From IMG/VR virus record IMGVR_UViG_2648501797_000004: a stretch of DNA of 18,074 nucleotides, one strand, 5' to 3'. The position numbers and the translations under genes are program-made. The notes under the pieces are model-generated. The model did no database searches. It was not told the origin of the DNA and was given only the letters and a program-made list of their open reading frames with translations. This DNA comes from a virus. Lineage: Duplodnaviria; Heunggongvirae; Uroviricota; Caudoviricetes. Positions 20 through 14,767 of this stretch are shown piece after piece. Numbering within the stretch: the stretch's first letter is position 1; every line of letters begins with the position of its first letter.

Positions 20-1300
20 TTAATTTTTCATTGCTTCGTTATGGGGCATGGTTGGGGCAAACTCGCTTAACTGTGTATTTAACAAAGCTACCTGTGCATT
101 ATTGTTTTCAGACATCCATTTTCCGTATACCTGAAATACCATTTGCGCATCTGCATGGCCCATCTGGTTTGCTATAAATGCCGGGTTAGCACCAGCTGTC
201 AGCGACCAGCAGGCATAAGTATGTCTCGACTGATATGATTTTCGATGGCGGAGTCCGGCACGTTTTATCGCTGCGTCCCACATCTGCCTTATTGAGTCAA
301 CGGTAAAATGGTCACCATAATTTTTTACTCTCGCTGACACTTCAGGTTGAAAAACAAAGGTGCATTTTTGTTTTTCTGTTCTGCCATACTCTCTGAGGTG
401 AACATCAATGATATGCTCTTTGCTCAGTCTCGTTAATGTCATCTGACTCCGGAGAGCGTCGATTGCTGGCTTAATAAGATGAATGACCCGATTGGTTCCC
501 GCCTGTGTTTTTGGTACCGTGAAACGGTCTTTTGCTAAATTTCTCCTGATCATCATTGTTCCATTTTTCAGATCTATGTCCTCCCATCCAAGTGCACACA
601 GCTCACCAGGGCGAACGCCAGTATAAACAGAAACACACCATAAATTTTTTGCTTGCTGATTTCTGCACGCATCGATAAGACGGATAAATTCCTCCCGCGA
701 AAGAGGATCCGGAATGGTTCTTGATTCCTTTAATGGCGAGATCCCCTTAAACGGATTATCTGCCAGGTAACCGTTATCAACACCAAACTGGAACACGGCG
801 TTAAGATTTGTCATGTAATTATTTACAGTTACAGCCGATCTCCCTGGTTGTGTAACAATATAGTTACTTTTGGGGATCTGGTATCCAGTCAGTAGCTCTT
901 TACGAACCTCCAGTAATTTTTCTTTATTAATCGATGAGGCAAGATTTTTTTCACCGATTATGCTCAGGATATTTTTGATGACGGCACGGTATGTGTTGAG
1001 TGATGTTTTGGCGACTTCAGTTTCTTTCAGTGCCAGAAATTTTTCAGCCAGTTCTTTTATGGTTAAATCTTGTCGGGCCTCACCAAATTTTTCCAGATTG
1101 CGTGAGGAGGGAAACTGTTTTGCATAGTCGAAAACACCAGTTTTTATTGCGTAACAAACAGAGGAGCGTAGTTCACCTGCAACGCGCCTGTTTTTTGCTG
1201 TGTCAGGAACCCCCAGATTTTCCCTGACTCTTACGCCTTTATAAACAAACCAGATACGTAATTTCCCTCCATGGTTTTCCACGCCTGTCGGATATTTCAT
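20..1300 (-). CDS. Tyrosine recombinase / phage integrase (lambda Int-like); ORF is open to 1315 but the ATG at 1300 (MKYPTGV...) has the better SD
   Basis: 431-aa ORF with a C-terminal catalytic region of tyrosine-recombinase type (TGVRPGEL, SRHTYACW, VFQVYGKW matching the R, H-x-x-R and Y positions) and an N-terminal arm-type domain; sits next to an excisionase-like gene. Confidence 0.85.
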   Translation of the reverse strand: MKYPTGVENHGGKLRIWFVYKGVRVRENLGVPDTAKNRRVAGELRSSVCYAIKTGVFDYAKQFPSSRNLEKFGEARQDLTIKELAEKFLALKETEVAKTSLNTYRAVIKNILSIIGEKNLASSINKEKLLEVRKELLTGYQIPKSNYIVTQPGRSAVTVNNYMTNLNAVFQFGVDNGYLADNPFKGISPLKESRTIPDPLSREEFIRLIDACRNQQAKNLWCVSVYTGVRPGELCALGWEDIDLKNGTMMIRRNLAKDRFTVPKTQAGTNRVIHLIKPAIDALRSQMTLTRLSKEHIIDVHLREYGRTEKQKCTFVFQPEVSARVKNYGDHFTVDSIRQMWDAAIKRAGLRHRKSYQSRHTYACWSLTAGANPAFIANQMGHADAQMVFQVYGKWMSENNNAQVALLNTQLSEFAPTMPHNEAMKN

Positions 1301-1334
1301 TTCAACTTCTCTCATTAGTTAGTGTGGCTTTTAG

Positions 1335-1586
1335 TCAAGTAAGATGACGTCTTGGTCTCGCTGATGCCTGGCGCTCAATCCAGCGATCAATTTCTTCCAG
1401 GTTGTAAAAGCATGGACTGTTATCCCATGGCATACCGTCATGAGCGACATGCTTATATTCCCTTCCTTCCATAAACGATTTTTCCCGGGCCTTTTTTAAC
1501 GTACCTTTTTTTATTCCTTTCAGCGCAATTAACTGCTCTTCGGATACCCATTTGCCGGGAGAGACAATCATGATTACTTCGCTCAT
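1335..1586 (-). CDS. Excisionase-like small DNA-binding protein (Xis)
   Basis: 83-aa ORF immediately upstream of int on the same strand; basic; contains a GREY motif like the lambda Xis DGREYLF region. Start codon uncertain (MSEV at 1586 or MIV at 1571). Confidence 0.55.
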   Translation of the reverse strand: MSEVIMIVSPGKWVSEEQLIALKGIKKGTLKKAREKSFMEGREYKHVAHDGMPWDNSPCFYNLEEIDRWIERQASARPRRHLT

Positions 1587-1658
1587 CGATTTCTTTATCT
1601 CTTACATCAGACGAGCGCCGGTTGCAGAATACCAGTCACAACCGGCGACAGTTGAACA

Positions 1659-4130
1659 TTAAGAATCAGCCTGACTCGGGATCAGTTTTTGCCAGATAAC
1701 TGAAACGTATTTTGCCTGGTAACGGGCGTCATCAAGTGCATTATGGCGCTCACCTTCGAATGGAATAGCCGTTCTGGCATCGAAGTCTATGGCTTTCCCC
1801 AGCTCAACGATTGTGCGTACATCGCGATCGTTGTAGTAACGCCACGGGCAGGGGATCCCCTGCCGTTCGTATGAACGGCGCAAAATCGTGTTGTCGAAGT
1901 TGGCTCCATTTCCCCAAACCTGAACAAAAAATTCACCGGAGTTTTCGTCGATAAATTCCCGCAATTGTAACAGTGCATCATCTAACGGGATTTCATCGGT
2001 CATAATGGCAGATTGCGCTTCGCGTGATTGCTTAAGCCACCATTTAATGGTGTCCCGATCAATGACTCCGCCAGCAGTTTCCAGATCGATAGTCTTACTA
2101 AATTCCGGTCCCATATCTCCGGTTTGCGGATCGAAAAATATTGCACCTATTGAGATGATCGGGGCATCAGGATTTTTTCCCATGGTTTCAAGGTCGATCA
2201 TTAGATGGTCACACGTCCTGCTGGTGGATGTGATTTCGTGATGACCGTTCACCTTAATTGGGTGATCTGCCGTCTCGCCAGTTTCATTATCGCTATTGTG
2301 ATGCTGATTGCCGCCAGTGTTCTCCTTGTGTGGATGTTCAGCGCCTTCCATTTCCTCCGGATCATCTTCCTGAACTTCAACCTGATACTCTTCATCGAAT
2401 GTTTCTTGGTATGTTGCGTCGCCCATCACCGCGCCACAATCAGGGCAGTTGCCGCCGCCGGTCTGACCGCAGGCGGTGCAGGCTTTTTCCACTTCCTGTT
2501 GCGCCACTGGTTCAGGCTGTTTCGTTTCTGGCTCGTTTTGTAACGCATTTGGACTGTTTTGTTCCGCTTTTTGGTAGTTCCGTTCCGATTCATGCTGGTT
2601 CTGGTTCACAGAATCGCGGGTCTGGATCCCCTTAACCCATTTCGGATCATTCGGGTCACTAATCCCTTCAACAAATTCACCACGTGATGCAGCAAGCAAC
2701 TTATCGGCGTCAGGCTGGCTGATATTGGCTGCCTGCATAATTTTGTTTACTTCGTCAGCGGTAACTTTTATCGGCTCTGGTTGTTCTGAATCTTCAGCGG
2801 TATCTACATTTTGCGGTAAGCCCGTGTATGTGCCATTTTTTCGGGCAAAATATTCTTCTTTTGTGATTTCAGTGGCGCCAGCAGCCAGTGCCTTATCCAG
2901 ACCAGAAAGTTTGTTTGCGCGACCGTATTTTTCTCCGTCCTTATCTGCGAAGAGGAAATAGAACGGCCCCTCACGCTCTACAGATGGTTCAGCTTCCGGC
3001 GCGGTTTCATTTTTTGGGATATCAGATACCTCAGTTTCCACTGCATCAGTTTGTGTTTCTGATGACTGGAGAACATCAACAGTGCCCAGGTCTGTTTCTT
3101 CATTCTCAAACACGCCCTTTGTCGTCAGGTATTCGCAGATATATTTGTTCAGTGCTACGGGATCTTTGTGAATGTCGATCGGACGCTCACGGACAAGGCC
3201 AAAAATAGTTTGGCGGTCGTAGCGAAGGGCATCAGGCTGTTTGCGCATTGATGCCGAGATACGCTTCCAGTCTTCGCGGTCGTTGTCGATAACTTCTTTT
3301 TTTGCCCAGCGATGGATGCTGCCGTCAATGTTTCCGGCATCCACATCACCAGGCCAGAGAGCGTAGGCCAGTTCGTCATCCAGTGTTTTCCATGTCTGCT
3401 TGTATTCGCGATGAATGGCAGCAATGACCGGGCTGATTTTTCCTGTTGAATTTTCAGTGTACTGTTGATTGGCTCTGGCGCGGGCGAGATCAACAACAGA
3501 CGTGTATTTTCCGGTTTCCTTGCGTTCACCTTCGCGACGTTTTTTCCAGATGCGCATCTCTGCCTGAATTTCGGGCCATTTAGCACCAGGAATACATTTA
3601 TGCTTAACCCACCCAATGGCGTGCAACTTAAGCTCCGGATACATGGCGTTAACTTCTGGCATTTTCATCAACGCTTCAACGATATGTCCGTCGAATGTTG
3701 CCATGTCTTCCTGCAACAATTCCTGTGCGCTAATAACCATATCAACGGTGATGTTTTCACATGTGTCGAACTTAACCATGACAGCGTTCTGTACTTCAGG
3801 GGCCAGCTTGTCAAAAGTGACGTTCATCGGATCGGATTCAGTCTCAACCGGGACAAAAGAAGCAGACTCCTCATCCCAGCGGTTTTCCTGCATATATTCA
3901 GCATCCCATGAATCGAGGGCAGGGCGGGGTATGCCAGGTTTATCCTCGCAGACAATAAATTTATAAGCGCAGTCCTGAGCAGCCGGATAATGTTCCAGGA
4001 ACTGCCAGTGAAATTTTGCTCGAGCACGGCGTTCGTCGCCAGCTTCAATGGCTGTGGCTACAGCCACAGCGCCTTCTTCCCTTGTTGCCAGTTCGTCAGG
4101 AATAGCGGCGCAAATAAAGACTTTACTCAT
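1659..4130 (-). CDS. Large modular accessory protein with C-terminal DnaQ-like DEDDh 3'-5' exonuclease domain (domain about nt 1662..2216); N-terminal ~300 aa of unknown function, acidic low-complexity linker, CxxC...CxxC zinc ribbon
   Basis: 823-aa ORF with an SD (GAGG) before the ATG at 4130. The C-terminal ~185 aa carry Exo I (MIDLETMG), Exo II (WGNGANFD) and Exo III (H-NALD-D) motifs. A CTACGQTGGGNCPDCG zinc-ribbon motif lies mid-protein, followed by a long D/E/Q-rich region. Confidence 0.75.
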   Translation of the reverse strand: MSKVFICAAIPDELATREEGAVAVATAIEAGDERRARAKFHWQFLEHYPAAQDCAYKFIVCEDKPGIPRPALDSWDAEYMQENRWDEESASFVPVETESDPMNVTFDKLAPEVQNAVMVKFDTCENITVDMVISAQELLQEDMATFDGHIVEALMKMPEVNAMYPELKLHAIGWVKHKCIPGAKWPEIQAEMRIWKKRREGERKETGKYTSVVDLARARANQQYTENSTGKISPVIAAIHREYKQTWKTLDDELAYALWPGDVDAGNIDGSIHRWAKKEVIDNDREDWKRISASMRKQPDALRYDRQTIFGLVRERPIDIHKDPVALNKYICEYLTTKGVFENEETDLGTVDVLQSSETQTDAVETEVSDIPKNETAPEAEPSVEREGPFYFLFADKDGEKYGRANKLSGLDKALAAGATEITKEEYFARKNGTYTGLPQNVDTAEDSEQPEPIKVTADEVNKIMQAANISQPDADKLLAASRGEFVEGISDPNDPKWVKGIQTRDSVNQNQHESERNYQKAEQNSPNALQNEPETKQPEPVAQQEVEKACTACGQTGGGNCPDCGAVMGDATYQETFDEEYQVEVQEDDPEEMEGAEHPHKENTGGNQHHNSDNETGETADHPIKVNGHHEITSTSRTCDHLMIDLETMGKNPDAPIISIGAIFFDPQTGDMGPEFSKTIDLETAGGVIDRDTIKWWLKQSREAQSAIMTDEIPLDDALLQLREFIDENSGEFFVQVWGNGANFDNTILRRSYERQGIPCPWRYYNDRDVRTIVELGKAIDFDARTAIPFEGERHNALDDARYQAKYVSVIWQKLIPSQADS

Positions 4131-4223
4131 TTTGTTTTAACCTCATGACAGATTTAAGGATGAACAAATCCCTGCCATTGCTGGCATATAAGAATGAAAC
4201 CGGATATTTATTACGGAACTGTT

Positions 4224-4415
4224 TTAAAGACCTGCCGGGATTTCGATATTATCCTGGTGAATAACTTTATCGACCGGGTAACAGTTACCGGGAATTTTCT
4301 GTTCGGTTGCTGCAGTCATACACTCCTGCATTGTCCTGTGAACACTGACTGCAATATCAACTGGCACTCCGGAAACAAGAAAAACTGTCAGAACAAGCGC
4401 AAATGCTGAATTCAT
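4224..4415 (-). CDS. Small hypothetical membrane/secreted protein (63 aa) with hydrophobic N-terminus
   Basis: ATG with AGGA SD; start overlaps the stop of the upstream small ORF in an ATGA arrangement (translational coupling). N-terminal stretch AFALVLTVFLVSGVPVDIAVSV is signal-peptide or TM-like. An alternative plus-strand ORF, 4194..4409, overlaps it. Confidence 0.4.
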   Translation of the reverse strand: MNSAFALVLTVFLVSGVPVDIAVSVHRTMQECMTAATEQKIPGNCYPVDKVIHQDNIEIPAGL

Positions 4416-4600
4416 TGTGCACATCCTTTTGGCATCAGACGTAAACGAGCCAGCATTGAAACAATGCATATTTTATTTAATAGCTCCCGTTCTTGTTTTC
4501 TCTTGTTAATGGCATCTTCAGTAAATACAGGGTTACTGATAGTGACACCAATTTCAAAACAACCTTCAGACGTATTAACGTTTGGTAATAACGTTTTCAT
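4412..4600 (-). CDS. Small hypothetical protein (62 aa), first gene of a coupled pair
   Basis: ATG at complement of 4598-4600 preceded by a GAGGA SD; its stop overlaps the start of the next ORF (ATGA). No recognisable family. Confidence 0.4.
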   Translation of the reverse strand: MKTLLPNVNTSEGCFEIGVTISNPVFTEDAINKRKQERELLNKICIVSMLARLRLMPKGCAQ

Positions 4601-4652
4601 TATCGCGTCCTCAACAATGAATTTTGTGATGCAGTGCCTGGTGCCTCCAGGT

Positions 4653-4679
4653 GACGTTAACCAGTTAACAATTAACGTC
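4653..4679. promoter_or_regulatory. Perfect 8-bp inverted repeat GACGTTAA-N11-TTAACGTC (operator-like) in the divergent intergenic region
   Basis: Palindrome read directly from the sequence; it also contains three TTAAC repeats, and sits between the minus-strand small-gene operon and the plus-strand Q-side genes. Confidence 0.3.
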
Positions 4680-4743
4680 GGATACACTACCTGAGGCTGT
4701 ATCGCGTCGTTCGCTGGGATTACCAGCGGAAAAAATCTGCTCG

Positions 4744-5202
4744 GTGTACCGCGAAAGCGACATCGTACCGGGAGAGCAGACCGCCACCAGCATATTGAAA
4801 CAACGCACAAAAAATCTTGCACCGTTGCCTTACGCCCACCAGCAACAAAAATCACCACAGGAAAAGACGGTGGTAAGCATCACCGTTGATCCAGAGTCTC
4901 CGGAATCTTTCATGAAGCTGCCTAAACGTCGCCGCTGGGTTAAGGAGAAATACACACGTTGGGTTAAGACACAGCCGTGTGCTTGCTGCGGTATGCCAGC
5001 CGACGATCCGCATCATCTGATTGGTCACGGGCAGGGCGGAATGGGAACAAAAGCACATGATCTCTTTGTGTTGCCTTTGTGCAGAAAGCATCACAACGAG
5101 CTGCATACGGATACAGTGGCATTTGAAGATAAGTATGGCTCCCAACTGGAGCTGATATTTCGTTTTATCGATCGCGCGCTGGCAATTGGCGTACTGGCGT
5201 AA
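4744..5202 (+). CDS. Cys/His-rich zinc-binding nuclease-like protein (YbcO/DUF1364- or DUF968-like fold); probable functional start at the ATG at 4912 (96 aa); may be the C-terminal remnant of a longer ydfU-like gene
   Basis: Motif C-x-C-C-G...HHLIGHG...GMGTKAHD...C-x-x-HH-x-E-L-H resembles small phage nin-region nucleases; lies directly upstream of Q. The ORF track start at 4744 is a GTG. Confidence 0.5.
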   Translation: MYRESDIVPGEQTATSILKQRTKNLAPLPYAHQQQKSPQEKTVVSITVDPESPESFMKLPKRRRWVKEKYTRWVKTQPCACCGMPADDPHHLIGHGQGGMGTKAHDLFVLPLCRKHHNELHTDTVAFEDKYGSQLELIFRFIDRALAIGVLA

Positions 5203-5215
5203 GTGGAGAACGAGC

Positions 5216-5968
5216 ATGAACCTTGAAGCCTTACCAAAATATTACTCCCCAAAATCTCCAAAATTGAGCGATGACGCTCCAGCGACAGGCACCGGTTGTT
5301 TAACAATTACGGATGTAATGGCAGCGCAGGGGATGGTGCAGTCGAAAGCACCACTTGGGTTGGCCTTATTTCTGGCAAAAGTTGGTGTTCAGGACCCTCA
5401 GTTTGCGATTGAAGGCCTGCTAAATTACGCGATGGCACTGGATAACCCGACATTGAACAAATTGAGTGAAGAAATCCGGTTACAGATTATTCCTTACCTC
5501 GTGAGTTTTGCCTTTGCTGATTACTCCAGGTCTGCGGCAAGTAAGGCTCGCTGTGAGCATTGTTCAGGTACGGGATTTTATAATGTATTGCGCGAAGTGG
5601 TGAAACACTACAGACGCGGGGAATCTGTAATCAAGGAAGAATGGGTGAAGGAACTATGTCAGCATTGCCATGGTAAGGGCGAAGCCAGCACAGCGTGCAG
5701 AGGGTGTAAGGGTAAAGGGATTGTTCTGGATGAAAAAAGAACCCGGTTTCATGGCGTACCGGTATATAAGATTTGTGGGCGTTGTAATGGAAACCGGTTT
5801 AGTCGTTTACCGACCACGCTGGCACGACGTCATGTCCAGAAGCTGGTACCAGACCTGACCGATTATCAGTGGTATAAGGGGTATGCGGACGTCATTGGTA
5901 AACTGGTAACAAAGTGCTGGCAGGAAGAAGCATACGCGGAAGCGCAATTGAGGAAGGTGACGAGATAA
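5216..5968 (+). CDS. quuQ: Late-gene antitermination protein Q (phage 21/82-type)
   Basis: 250-aa product from an ATG with a GGAGAA SD; Cys-rich zinc-finger region (CEHCSGTG...CQHCHGKG...CRGCKGKG); position immediately upstream of a strong promoter plus terminator and the lysis genes. Confidence 0.8.
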   Translation: MNLEALPKYYSPKSPKLSDDAPATGTGCLTITDVMAAQGMVQSKAPLGLALFLAKVGVQDPQFAIEGLLNYAMALDNPTLNKLSEEIRLQIIPYLVSFAFADYSRSAASKARCEHCSGTGFYNVLREVVKHYRRGESVIKEEWVKELCQHCHGKGEASTACRGCKGKGIVLDEKRTRFHGVPVYKICGRCNGNRFSRLPTTLARRHVQKLVPDLTDYQWYKGYADVIGKLVTKCWQEEAYAEAQLRKVTR

Positions 5969-6602: not shown

Positions 6603-6902
6603 AAAAATTCCTTAATACTGATAACTTGGCGCACTATACACACGTTCCTGAAGAAAGCTATAGTTTTTTGATGGGGTTGAAGACGGCTGGATGTCTAAAA
6701 TAAACATTGCTTCATATGTTCAACTATGCGTTAATGATTGCGTCGGTTTGAAGAACAGACGATATACGAAGTAGTTTACTAAAGCAGTTCTCATTTCAGG
6801 TGTTATTCACTTATTCCTTCTTTGAGTCTCTCCAATTAAGTACGAAGTCGTTTCTGTTATGCAAACCATTTATGCCGAAAGGCTCAAGTTAAGGAATGTA
6901 GA

Positions 6903-7118
6903 ATGTCAAATAAAATGACTGGTTTAGTAAAATGGTTTAACGCTGATAAAGGTTTCGGCTTTATTTCTCCTGTTGATGGTAGTAAAGATGTGTTTGTGCA
7001 TTTTTCTGCGATTCAGAATGATAATTATCGAACCTTATTTGAAGGTCAAAAGGTTACCTTCTCTATAGAGAGTGGTGCTAAAGGTCCTGCAGCAGCAAAT
7101 GTCATCATTACTGATTAA
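6903..7118 (+). CDS. cspB: Cold-shock protein CspB
   Basis: 71-aa CspA-family ORF with RNP1/RNP2-like motifs (KGFGFI, VFVHF); long AT-rich leader upstream. Confidence 0.85.
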
Positions 7119-7399
7119 AATTCATCGCTCGTCTGTATACGATAACGAAGAAGGCTGATGCCTGAGTAGAGATACGGACAGAGTAGTGAATATTGGATCT
7201 CTTTAATAAAAAGTAAGGAGGTCCAATACATGAAACAATGGCTAGCATATTTGGCAAAATCTTAATCAGGAAAAGTATGCTAACCATTGTGGTGAAGTGC
7301 AGGTTTGCTGCATGAATAGTTTTACAGCAGAAGCTAACTGCTGGCATGGCAAAACAAAGTGCGTAAGTGGATGACTCCCACAAAAAGCACCACAATCTC

Positions 7400-9489: not shown

Positions 9490-9852
9490 ATTAATATTAA
9501 ATCGGATTATTTTTAGCGCTGAATGTGAAATTTAAATAAAAAGGACTCTTCCATGAGTCAAAATCCTTGAAATCTTAAGGGTAAGATAAAAGGTCATTAG
9601 ACAGAATGACACGTTTTATTAATAAATAAAGCTATTGTTTCATTCGTGTGTTTTTCTTTACAAAAGTAATCCTTGCTATGGTTGGTTAATCATGCGTTAA
9701 TGGTGTTCTGGTTTGTTACAAAATTATCTGAAGCAGTCATTGTTATAATTTTATTATTTGTACCTCTTGAGATTTCCTTGTTGGTTTTTCTCTCTGATAT
9801 TTTTTTTCGGACCATTCTGCCCAAGGGCTAACTTCTTCAAAAGGTAATAATA

Positions 9853-10065
9853 ATGTCTAACAAAATGACTGGTTTAGTGAAATGGTTTAACCCTGAAAAA
9901 GGTTTTGGTTTCATCACGCCGAAAGATGGTAGCAAAGATGTGTTTGTGCATTTCTCAGCTATTCAGAGCAACGATTTCAAAACGTTAACTGAGAATCAGG
10001 AAGTCGAATTTGGTATTGAGAACGGACCTAAAGGCCCTGCAGCTGTTCATGTAGTGGCACTTTGA
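9853..10065 (+). CDS. cspI: Cold-shock protein CspI
   Basis: 70-aa CspA-family ORF ([34 protein letters not shown]...); long AT-rich leader of about 360 bp upstream. Confidence 0.85.
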
Positions 10066-10267
10066 GGTAGAAAATATTACAAACCATATTCACTTTAGAT
10101 GCCCGTGTTGCCATGGTTCTCAGTATAGAACATCATCTTTTGATGTTTCTGACAGAAATCCTTTCGGGGCAAAATGTATCTTTTGTAAATCAATGATGAT
10201 TACATTTGATAATATTTCACAATACTTAAATGTTAGCCATCTGTCGTTAGATTTAAGAAAGTGAAAA

Positions 10268-12247: not shown

Positions 12248-12793
12248 ATGGAAGTCAACAAAAAGCAGCTGGCTGACATTTTCGGTGCGAGTATCCGTAC
12301 CATTCAGAACTGGCAGGAACAGGGAATGCCCGTTCTGCGAGGCGGTGGCAAGGGTAATGAGGTGCTTTATGACTCTGCCGCCGTTATAAGATGGTATGCC
12401 GAAAGGGATGCTGAAATTGAGAACGAAAAGCTGCGCCGGGAAGTTGAAGAACTGCGGCAGGCCAGCGAGACAGATCTCCAGCCAGGGACTATTGAGTACG
12501 AACGCCATCGACTTACGCGTGCGCAGGCCGACGCACAGGAGCTGAAAAATGCCAGAGACTCCACTGAAGTGGTGGAAACCGCATTCTGTACTTTCGTGCT
12601 GTCGCGGATCGCAGGTGAAATTGCCAGTATTCTCGACGGGATCCCCCTGTCGGTGCAGCGGCGTTTTCCGGAACTGGAAAACCGACATGTTGATTTCCTG
12701 AAACGGGATATCATCAAAGCCATGAACAAAGCAGCCGCGCTGGATGAACTGATACCGGGGTTGCTGAGTGAATATATCGAACAGTCAGGTTAA
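12248..12793 (+). CDS. nohA: Terminase small subunit Nu1
   Basis: 181-aa product near-identical (from recall) to lambda gpNu1 (MEVNKKQLADIFGASIRTIQNWQEQGMPVLRGGGKGNEVLYDSAAV...); overlaps the downstream A ORF by 26 nt as in lambda. Confidence 0.9.
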   Translation: MEVNKKQLADIFGASIRTIQNWQEQGMPVLRGGGKGNEVLYDSAAVIRWYAERDAEIENEKLRREVEELRQASETDLQPGTIEYERHRLTRAQADAQELKNARDSTEVVETAFCTFVLSRIAGEIASILDGIPLSVQRRFPELENRHVDFLKRDIIKAMNKAAALDELIPGLLSEYIEQSG

Positions 12794-14192
12794 CAGGCTG
12801 CGGCATTTTGTCCGCGCCGGGCTTCGCTCACTGTTCAGGCCGGAGCCACAGACCGCCGTTGAATGGGCGGATGCTAATTACTATCTCCCGAAAGAATCCG
12901 CATACCAGGAAGGGCGCTGGGAAACACTGCCCTTTCAGCGGGCCATCATGAATGCGATGGGCAGCGACTACATCCGTGAGGTGAATGTGGTGAAGTCTGC
13001 CCGTGTCGGTTATTCCAAAATGCTGCTGGGTGTTTATGCCTACTTCATAGAGCATAAGCAGCGCAACACCCTTATCTGGTTGCCGACGGATGGTGATGCC
13101 GAGAACTTTATGAAAACCCACGTTGAGCCGACTATTCGTGATATTCCGTCGCTGCTGGCGCTGGCCCCGTGGTATGGCAAAAAGCACCGGGATAACACGC
13201 TCACCATGAAGCGTTTCACTAATGGGCGTGGCTTCTGGTGCCTGGGCGGTAAAGCGGCAAAAAACTACCGTGAAAAGTCGGTGGATGTGGCGGGTTATGA
13301 TGAACTTGCTGCTTTTGATGATGATATTGAACAGGAAGGCTCTCCGACGTTCCTGGGTGACAAGCGTATTGAAGGCTCGGTCTGGCCAAAGTCCATCCGT
13401 GGCTCCACGCCCAAAGTGAGAGGCACCTGTCAGATTGAGCGTGCAGCCAGTGAATCCCCGCATTTTATGCGTTTTCATGTTGCCTGCCCGCACTGCGGGG
13501 AGGAGCAGTACCTTAAATTTGGCGATAAAGAGACGCCGTTTGGCCTCAAATGGACGCCGGATGATCCCTCCAGCGTGTTTTATCTCTGCGAACATAATGC
13601 CTGCGTCATCCGCCAGCAGGAGCTGGACTTCACTGATGCCCGTTATATCTGCGAAAAGACCGGGATCTGGACCCGTGATGGCATTCTCTGGTTTTCGTCA
13701 TCCGGTGAAGAGATTGAACCGCCTGACAGCGTGACCTTTCACATCTGGACGGCGTACAGCCCGTTCACCACCTGGGTGCAGATTGTCAAAGACTGGATGA
13801 AAACGAAAGGGGATACCCATAGTTTAAGTGGCAGCACGAATGCAGCTGGTAATCACAGCCATAGAGATGGCCGTCGATTTAACCCCAGTGTTTTTAAAGA
13901 TACTTATCAATATGGTTATACAAGCTCAGGTCAAAATACCTGGGGTGTACAAGGCTCAGTAGGTATGTCTACGGGGTGGTTAGCTAATACCAGTACAGAT
14001 GGTAATCATAGCCACTCACTGTCCGGCACAGCAGCATCTGCAGGTGCACACGCGCATACTGTCGGTATTGGTGCTCATACGCACTCCGTTGCGATTGGTT
14101 CACATGGACACACCATCACCGTTAACGCTGCTGGTAACGCGGAAAACACCGTCAAAAACATCGCATTTAACTATATTGTGAGGCTTGCATAA
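12768..14192 (+). pseudogene. stfQ: In-frame deletion fusion: terminase large subunit gpA N-terminal ~350 aa (12768..13817) joined to the C-terminal ~124 aa of a side tail fibre protein (13818..14192)
   Basis: Lambda gpA-like sequence runs through ...WVQIVKDWMKTKGDT, then switches abruptly to a His-rich tail-fibre C-terminus (GNHSH, HSHSLSG, HAHTVGIGAHTHSVAIGSHGHTITV ... [11 protein letters not shown]); all head and tail genes are absent. Confidence 0.8.
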
Positions 14193-14767
14193 TGGCATTC
14201 AGAATGAGTGAACAACCACGGACCATAAAAATTTATAATCTGCTGGCCGGAACTAATGAATTTATTGGTGAAGGTGATGCATATATTCCGCCTCATACAG
14301 GTCTGCCAGCAAACAGTACCGATATTGCACCGCCAGATATTCCGGCAGGCTTCGTGGCTGTTTTCAACAGTGATGAGTCATCGTGGCATCTCGTTGAAGA
14401 TCATCGGGGTAAAACGGTTTATGACGTGGCTTCCGGCGACGCGTTATTTATTTCTGAACTCGGTCCGTTACCGGAAAATGTTACCTGGTTATCGCCGGAA
14501 GGAGAGTTTCAGAAGTGGAACGGCACAGCCTGGGTGAAGGATACGGAAGCAGAAAAACTGTTCCGGATCCGGGAGGCGGAAGAAATAAAAAACAACCTGA
14601 TGCAGGTAGCCAGTGAGCATATTGCGCCGCTTCAGGATGCTGCAGATCTGGAAATTGCAACGGAGGAAGAAATCTCGTTGCTGGAAGCATGGAAAAAGTA
14701 TCGGGTATTGCTGAACCGTGTTGATACGTCAACTTCACAGGATATTGAATGGCCAGCACTGCCGTAG
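14192..14767 (+). CDS. tfaQ: Tail fibre assembly protein (Tfa)
   Basis: 191-aa ORF whose start overlaps the stop of the fibre fragment (TAATG); Tfa-like sequence and position after stf. Confidence 0.8.

Follow-up and report, generated by a model that had tools for sequence, protein, structure and literature searches.

The question raised by this locus is what a protein of 823 amino acids (aa), ending in an exonuclease domain, does directly upstream of the excisionase and integrase genes of a defective prophage. The protein is encoded by the open reading frame (ORF) at positions 1659-4130, minus strand (ATG start, 823 codons plus stop), of the stretch analysed here, which comprises 18,074 nucleotides of IMG/VR virus record IMGVR_UViG_2648501797_000004 and is hereafter called the window. 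The window is 100% identical to part of the E. coli ST540 chromosome, where it forms a cryptic Qin-type prophage remnant between rspB and ydfJ. An earlier note on this DNA had likened the protein to defence or anti-defence cargo and proposed it as a candidate for an undescribed system. From our analysis, the protein consists of a RecE/YdfE-family body and a DexA-type DEDDh head, and functional, annealase-free lambdoid phages carry its gene in their early-left operon. We take it for a known type of phage recombination protein with its head exchanged, not for a new defence system.

The ORF is real; besides its ATG start, it has a Shine-Dalgarno-like GAGG 10 nt upstream and a RefSeq entry for its product in E. 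coli ST540 (WP_000048324.1, 'exonuclease'). Over residues 1-256 the protein shows 100% identity to what is encoded by the K-12 pseudogene ydfE (b1577), which is interrupted by IS2 (K-12 region L003:18079-18999), and the gene in the window is therefore the intact form of ydfE. The protein is already catalogued as a sequence family in RefSeq, PHROG and Pfam: PHROG 2082 covers it over its full length, and Pfam and RefSeq label its head family '3'-5' exoribonuclease' (Rv2179c-like). A copy of the gene (at least 80% of its length) was found in 3537 of 5426 complete E. coli genomes (65%), at a median of two places and a maximum of ten per genome. As a sequence, then, the protein is not undescribed. 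The ydfE-type gene is routinely mis-annotated as 'exodeoxyribonuclease VIII' or 'exoribonuclease'.

The C-terminal part had been described earlier as a complete DnaQ-like DEDDh domain, and this was borne out by profile, alignment and structure prediction. Pfam PF16473 (Rv2179c-like) spans aa 642-813 (E = 2.4e-67; 226.5 bits against a gathering threshold of 27), and residues D646, E648, D746, H796 and D801 align in invariant columns with D7, E9, D119, H186 and D191 of T4 DexA, the Exo I (DxE), Exo II (D) and Exo III (H-x4-D) residues all being present. AlphaFold2 gave a confident fold for aa 641-819, with high values of the predicted local distance difference test (pLDDT). The best solved-structure match of the head model was T4 DexA 8kel (Foldseek E = 1e-8); the Foldseek probability was 1.00 against 8kel, RNase T and oligoribonuclease, while ERI1 and Cap18 were also among the structural neighbours. 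A PDB sequence search matched DexA alone. In codon analysis against diverged alleles, the ratio of nonsynonymous to synonymous substitution rates (dN/dS) of the head was 0.18-0.37. As judged from alignment and model, the head is a predicted DEDDh 3'-5' exonuclease belonging to the DexA/Rv2179c clade, with all five catalytic residues intact. It lacks the PD-(D/E)XK fold of lambda Exo or RecE, as the note had also stated, since the C-terminus is PF16473 and nothing in it matches RecE 600-866.

T4 DexA (8kel, 8ken), the phage-encoded 3'-5' DNA exonuclease to which we liken the head, shares with it the DEDDh fold and all five catalytic residues but is free-standing (227 aa), has extra loops and is only about 26% identical to the window head. 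Its 5-hydroxymethylcytosine (5hmC) recognition residues Trp152 and Asp169 appear not to be kept, the aligned window residues in this gapped stretch being Y766 and A780. DexA is described as acting in intron homing, a double-strand-break repair process, with host-DNA scavenging as one of its two roles (PMC12153337). Closer in sequence are the free-standing DnaQ-type nucleases epsilon34 gp34, mEp460 gp26 and 720R4, which are 56-60% identical to aa 641-821 (the epsilon34 orthologue being 55.6% identical to the head); their genes sit in the early-left operon like the window gene, but the proteins are only 183-190 aa long and have no RecE-like body. The epsilon34 gene lies between those for the single-stranded DNA-binding protein (SSB) and Abc2, beside the annealase, in a P22-type Rec module. 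DnaQ-type nucleases have been noted before inside such modules (epsilon34) and near int, with functions unassigned (Zheng et al. 2025, PMC12315714). All the E. coli DexA-like proteins that we found fall in the same PF16473 prophage clade. One of them, P0320 (185 aa), has an N-terminal half like free-standing mEp460 gp26 and a C-terminal half identical to the window head; this chimera is indicative that free-standing and fused DEDDh genes recombine with each other.

The remainder of the protein is related to Rac RecE. No motif had been recognised earlier in the N-terminal ~300 aa, but the first 235 aa are now covered by Pfam YdfE_N and YdfE_C (PF27430, PF27432), and aa 15-205 align with RecE 12-222 as a remote homologue (hhalign probability 95.7%, E = 9.8e-9, 182 columns). 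Further along, BLASTP aligned aa 262-627 with Rac RecE 278-592 (E = 3e-62), with identity of about 80% from the conserved helix through the Cys4 motif to the acidic linker, and NCBIfam NF007259 (RecE equivalog) matched aa 246-623 with E = 1.5e-83 and 281.3 bits, which does not reach its cut-off of 1269 bits. The RecE homology ends at aa 627, where the nuclease domain of RecE starts, and the head-swap junction falls at about aa 623-627. By these alignments, aa 15-627, or about 75% of the protein, are a homologue of the non-catalytic body of Rac RecE (exonuclease VIII), and only the catalytic head differs. The two proteins are of similar build (866 aa in RecE vs 823 aa) and their genes occupy the same operon position, early-left near xis-int; the RecE head, however, is a PD-(D/E)XK 5'-3' nuclease (~564-866), whereas that of the window protein is of the DEDDh 3'-5' type. 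The earlier opinion that this is unlikely to be a classical recombination exonuclease is hence right for the head, which is not RecE-type, and not supported for the body.

We then compared the AlphaFold2 models (aa 1-345, pLDDT 92, and full length) with the selection map of the gene (Table 1). The modelled parts are an alpha/beta domain (aa 1-97), a helical region (~aa 129-228), a very confident helical bundle (aa 245-340), a beta-hairpin/helix unit (aa 388-432), two helices (aa 458-482) and the DEDDh head. Domains A and B (dN/dS 0.10-0.38) together form the remote homologue of RecE 12-222. No module of the RecE/YdfE family is more widespread than domain C ('N2'), which nearly all members have whichever head they carry, although phmmer did not recover it in Rac RecE itself. 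The most constrained segment of the protein is aa 388-435, and aa 471-500 are nearly identical to Rac RecE 452-481. A CxxC...CxxC motif followed by an acidic linker, which the note had pointed out, was found as described (CTAC and CPDC; 18 D+E vs 3 K+R in aa 576-640), and the Cys4 segment is common to Rac RecE 518-546. AlphaFold2 confidence is low over a long stretch (aa 500-634) that includes this motif, so the putative zinc ribbon is proposed from the motif and its constraint. Overall, purifying selection acts on the folded parts as well as on the Cys4 segment and the head (dN/dS 0.03-0.37 against diverged alleles) while the three linkers are near neutral (0.35-1.3), and the selection map thereby agrees with the AlphaFold2 map. 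Synonymous divergence varied many-fold between segments within the same allele pair, a signature of mosaic recombination.

An exhaustive profile search with aa 1-345 recovered only 168 representative clusters, and the family proved to be combinatorial. A YdfE-type or Rac-type N-terminus is joined to the common helical bundle, to optional mid and Cys4 modules, and to one C-terminal head, which in the long members is a RecE-type nuclease, a DEDDh exonuclease or neither. Eighteen of the 27 members with neither head share a conserved tail of ~260 aa that is 40% identical (E ~1e-65) to free-standing Pseudomonas proteins named Rad52/Rad22 family. One of these free-standing homologues has a precomputed PF04098 match, and the tail itself has a sub-threshold Pfam Rad52_Rad22 match; a sequence search of the PDB with the tail, and hhalign comparisons with RecT and epsilon34 gp36, gave nothing significant. 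From the named homologues and the two Pfam matches, we assign the tail as a probable Rad52-family annealase. The Rad52-fused proteins (PHROG 2489) have the same YdfE_N/YdfE_C body and mid domain as the window protein, with an annealase in place of its nuclease head, and are probably the 'RecE-2' proteins of Zheng et al. 2025. With the RecE nuclease and the Rad52-type tail on the same body, two of the three identifiable heads are, as assigned, bona fide recombination enzymes. The family context is thus one of recombination, in which sister bodies carry either the RecE nuclease together with recT or a fused Rad52-type annealase.

Several further arrangements were observed in this family. Many PHROG 2489 proteins with a RecE/YdfE body (P0130, P0132, P0139, P0148 and others) are named 'exonuclease' yet carry no nuclease. 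The Rad52-type tail has the motif KKSLTDAxKKALSxLGFSADV, and in Erwinia (L014:5347-7620) the body-Rad52 fusion gene is followed by a Sipho_Gp157 gene. A single ORF at L167:5959-7932 appears to fuse a RecE nuclease head to RecT, and one member of the family alignment also bears a Pfam RecT domain. A further tail type on the same body (PHROG 26058; P0126, P0215, P0238, P0259 and P0208), with segments ...LSGRTDVM...CTGHL...LCANPA..., has no recognisable domain.

The genes that accompany each head were scored at 171 loci of relatives, found with N2-module alignments; RecE-headed loci were counted where enough downstream DNA was available, DEDDh-headed loci were checked over ~5-6 kb, and clusters were defined at 90% identity. 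Every RecE-headed gene was followed by an overlapping recT (60/60 loci, 29/29 clusters), whereas no recT was found within ~5-6 kb of a DEDDh-headed gene (0/79 loci, 13 clusters), and the association of head type with recT was strong (Fisher's exact test on clusters, p = 4e-11). The coupling tracks the head and not the body, as a YdfE-type body with a RecE head (P0128, locus L011) does have recT. Upstream, ydfD is kept next to DEDDh-headed and RecE-headed relatives alike. The window gene agrees with this pattern in that neither the annotation nor the domain scan of the window shows a bet, gam, exo or recT gene. The note had likewise seen no bet/gam/exo-like genes here, and Tritos, the intact sister phage, has none of these and no recT either.

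Isolated phages encode near-identical proteins (HannyBb 99.9%, PhiR42_1 99.6% and Tritos 99.1% identical); in mEp460_ev081, Evi, PPompW and Stx2a phages the protein is a variant with 84-89% identity. Tritos amounts to an intact Qin, with the early-left order CI <- ydfA-ydfB-ydfC-DicF-dicB-ydfD-exo-xis-int, in which exo denotes the window-type exonuclease gene. Across the whole Tritos genome no annealase, SSB or anti-RecBCD gene was found, and the window-type exonuclease is its only recombination-type gene; epsilon34, in contrast, has annealase, SSB and Abc2 alongside its nuclease. A hidden annealase in Tritos or HannyBb was considered and rejected after Pfam and PHROG scans of the unassigned ORFs. 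Tritos is also rich in Chi: its top strand has 9 sites (0.9 expected) and its bottom strand 2 (0.4 expected), while the window, as an 18 kb remnant, has 2 and 2. In Table 1 of Zheng et al. 2025 (PMC12315714), 'Tritos' typifies Rec modules that have a nuclease only and go with a Chi-rich genome; the phage fits this type by its early-left nuclease, its lack of annealase, SSB and anti-RecBCD genes and its Chi content; the window-type gene is, we infer, the nuclease that was scored there. The gene is frameshifted in PPompW (L183:6001-8468) and in Stx2a phage records and cut by IS2 in K-12, which is indicative that its loss is tolerated in at least some lineages, though intact copies still predominate. 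Among side observations on these phages, the top-strand Chi sites (GCTGGTGG) of Tritos (L181), enriched about tenfold, cluster at 31.8-42.9 kb. The replication-proximal accessory genes of Tritos (L181:33876-35210 and 36334-38090) encode a 444-aa FRG-domain protein and an ImmA/IrrE-helix-turn-helix protein. In HannyBb (L004:3544-4230), a homologue of QueH (epoxyqueuosine reductase) lies beside a small DNA methyltransferase ORF.

We favour, with moderate confidence, a role of the protein in phage DNA-end processing or recombination together with host enzymes, and place much less confidence in any specific sub-mechanism. Lytic growth or induction would switch on the gene as part of the PL-type early-left operon (ydfABC-dicF-dicB-ydfD-exo-xis-int), and the RecE-like body may bring or tether the enzyme to phage DNA ends. 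There the DEDDh head would remove nucleotides from 3' ends, trimming 3' tails or flaps or blunting the ends, and the products may enter host pathways, either RecBCD-Chi-RecA or RecA-independent annealing of 5' tails. The enzyme would accordingly differ from one half of a two-component exonuclease-plus-annealase recombinase. That the ends are probably fed to host pathways is suggested by Tritos-type phages lacking annealase, SSB and anti-RecBCD genes and by the Chi richness of Tritos. Host 3'-5' exonucleases are known to make ends blunt so that RecBCD can load, and in vivo the joining of linear fragments without RecA is driven by XthA. The RecE body is dispensable for catalysis yet improves end-to-end, linear-linear recombination, and in RecET recombineering full-length RecE is needed for linear-linear cloning.

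Several points weigh against this role. The DEDDh-headed gene has no annealing partner gene beside it, its int-proximal position is also typical of accessory genes, and we found no functional study of ydfE or Rv2179c relatives, including any fused relative, in the literature. The profile and structure analysis of the N-terminal body that the note had proposed gave RecE homology by profile and a confident AlphaFold2 model; fold searches, on the other hand, returned no informative relative of the body. In the window copy the operon promoter region is deleted, so this copy may be unexpressed. Furthermore, Zheng et al. (PMC12315714) point out that 3'-5' exonucleases, which destroy 3' tails, commonly work against recombination by RecA, and they explicitly leave int-proximal DnaQ-type genes out of the Rec modules, while EcD, a free-standing E. 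coli homologue, was reported as an anti-T4 nuclease (PMC12153337). A bolder form of the end-processing role would make the RecE/YdfE body a general recombination platform with swappable heads. Its DEDDh form would provide annealase-independent end processing of reverse polarity for Chi-rich phages without a Rec module, readying ends for host RecBCD-Chi-RecA or for RecA-independent joining of 5' tails. We consider this form doubtful as it stands; if true, it would represent a new mode of phage-host recombination cooperation. With a head of opposite polarity and no annealase, the ydfE-type protein offers a testable handle on what the ~600-aa RecE body does, which is relevant to RecET recombineering, and on how a large group of phages, the Chi-rich lambdoid ones without Rec modules, sustain recombination-dependent growth.

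A defence function, which the note had preferred, is unlikely and found no direct support. According to this explanation, the protein would be a superinfection-exclusion or defence nuclease whose DEDDh head degrades incoming modified (e.g., 5hmC) phage DNA, with the body as sensor or regulator. The neighbouring dicB/dicF operon does confer phage resistance when expressed, 65% of E. coli genomes retain intact copies of the gene, frequently within defective prophages, and the E. coli DexA-like proteins, all of the one prophage clade mentioned above, swap segments between free-standing and fused forms (P0320). The single published precedent is EcD ('HREX'), a distant homologue and, like the window head, an E. 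coli DEDDh exonuclease of the DexA family; from a plasmid it is reported to protect against T4 and to cut T4 DNA while sparing unmodified double-stranded DNA (Kang et al. 2025, PMC12153337). EcD is almost certainly of prophage origin; the protein (HAK9828821.1) was not found among our clusters of E. coli DexA-like proteins, and from its A78/D90 numbering we infer that it resembles free-standing proteins of the P0361/P0350 type that start at MIDLET. Several points nevertheless speak against the comparison. EcD is free-standing and ~185 aa long, whereas 75% of the window protein is a recombination-family body. The window head retains Asp (D718) at the position of DexA D90, where EcD has Ala and has lost the tetramerisation Asp, and in a gapped part of the alignment it appears to have Tyr766, aromatic though not Trp, at the Trp152 column and Ala780 at the D169 column, with D782 and D784 nearby. 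The gene is distal in a repressor-controlled early-left operon, downstream of dicB-ydfD, and has no promoter-like site of its own. PADLOC, named in the note as a check, matched no defence system: with PADLOC-DB 2.0 the sole matches of the protein were to the Cas-associated DEDDh model, which is generic (E = 1.8e-5), and to one named 'Effector' (E = 0.024), and the neighbouring genes gave no matches. This emphasizes the caution to be exercised with int-proximal nuclease fusions, which need not be defence cargo.

It is improbable that the protein is a host-takeover or anti-defence nuclease, which would degrade host or competitor DNA for nucleotides or destroy 3'-ended immune nucleic acids. The gene is expressed early, the carrier phages have no anti-RecBCD protein, and the closest solved relative, T4 DexA, has host-DNA scavenging as one of its two roles. 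DEDDh exonucleases also occur in immune contexts, with which the structural match to Cap18 and the weak Cas-associated DEDDh match are in line. However, degradation of the host chromosome is not known from temperate lambdoid phages, no match to a known anti-defence family was found, and host takeover gives no reason for joining the head to a RecE body whose other heads are annealases or recombination nucleases. An RNA-directed exoribonuclease that processes or degrades phage or host RNA, e.g., the dicF/dicB transcript, is very unlikely. It would suit the Pfam and RefSeq name '3'-5' exoribonuclease', the presence of RNase T, oligoribonuclease and ERI1 among the structural neighbours, and co-transcription with the small RNA DicF in intact phages. 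Yet the solved protein closest to the head, in sequence as in structure, is the DNA exonuclease DexA, orthologues lie in DNA recombination modules (epsilon34), and the body is common to DNA recombination proteins.

Hardly probable at all is that the window copy is a silent relic, an intact ORF in a decayed prophage without promoter and of no contribution to the host: the prophage has lost dicF, its immunity and replication region and most morphogenesis genes, no promoter of the gene's own was found in 1300-5400 (the single weak promoter-like site there is on the opposite strand) and the K-12 copy is already disrupted by IS2, but the ORF is intact and 99-100% identical to live-phage copies, read-through transcription or weak promoters are possible, and the proposal concerns expression in one strain, not the role of the protein.

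Table 1. Features of the ydfE-type gene, its predicted protein domains and the adjoining operon genes in the window
Feature	Position	Strand	Basis
Tyrosine integrase gene (int); RefSeq start at 1300	20..1315	-	annotation and Pfam
Excisionase gene (xis; DUF1233), immediately downstream of the ydfE-type gene, same operon	1335..1586	-	annotation and Pfam
Whole ORF, intact ydfE-type 'exonuclease' WP_000048324.1	1659..4130	-	RefSeq annotation; ydfE identity; full-length PHROG 2082 match
Predicted DEDDh 3'-5' exonuclease head, aa 641-823, PF16473, DexA/Rv2179c-like	1662..2210	-	Pfam, AlphaFold2, Foldseek, alignment
Acidic low-complexity linker, aa 581-640	2211..2390	-	pLDDT <50; dN/dS 0.8-1.3, near neutral
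Chi octamer GCTGGTGG inside the gene, linker/head junction	2220..2227	+	same site in Tritos at 27079
Putative zinc ribbon, aa 549-580, CTAC 551-554 and CPDC 562-565 (CxxC-x7-CxxC)	2391..2486	-	motif; dN/dS 0.06-0.24
Conserved helical segment, aa 471-500 (DADKLLAASRGEFVEGISDPNDPKWVKG)	2631..2720	-	BLASTP; dN/dS 0.06-0.19
Small beta-hairpin/helix domain, aa 388-435 (FYFLFADKDG...)	2826..2969	-	pLDDT ~88-96; dN/dS 0.03-0.08
Linker, aa 346-387, acidic, predicted disordered	2970..3095	-	pLDDT <50; dN/dS 0.35-0.67
Body domain C ('N2'), aa 236-345, helical bundle	3096..3425	-	AlphaFold2, pLDDT 95-98; dN/dS 0.11-0.17
Body domain B, aa 101-235, helical	3426..3830	-	AlphaFold2
Body domain A, aa 1-100, YdfE_N, small alpha/beta fold	3831..4130	-	Pfam, AlphaFold2
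Shine-Dalgarno-like GAGG, 10 nt before ATG	4141..4144	-	read from sequence
ydfD (DUF1482), immediately upstream of the ydfE-type gene	4224..4415	-	annotation and Pfam
dicB, cell-division inhibitor, upstream, same operon	4412..4600	-	annotation and Pfam

The gene order in the window is dicB-ydfD-exo-xis-int, with exo directly upstream of xis and int on the same strand, and the int-proximal placement given in the note is therefore correct. Beyond dicB the window has lost dicF, the promoter and the immunity region that are seen in the intact order of Tritos, owing to which the window copy may be silent. A deletion junction lies just upstream of dicB (window 4600-5220), with DicF, dicA/dicC, relBE and hokD gone, and Rfam found no DicF in the window. 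In the same interval a 5'-truncated ydfU (DUF968) pseudogene on the opposite strand abuts dicB. The entire head and tail morphogenesis block of phage Tritos is deleted in the window, and at 12768-14767 a terminase large-subunit ORF of 474 aa runs straight into tfaQ. Rfam also reported two cspA-type thermoregulator leaders (6742-7134 and 9706-10111), which precede cspB and cspI, and within tfaQ a match to IS009 RNA (14535-14733).

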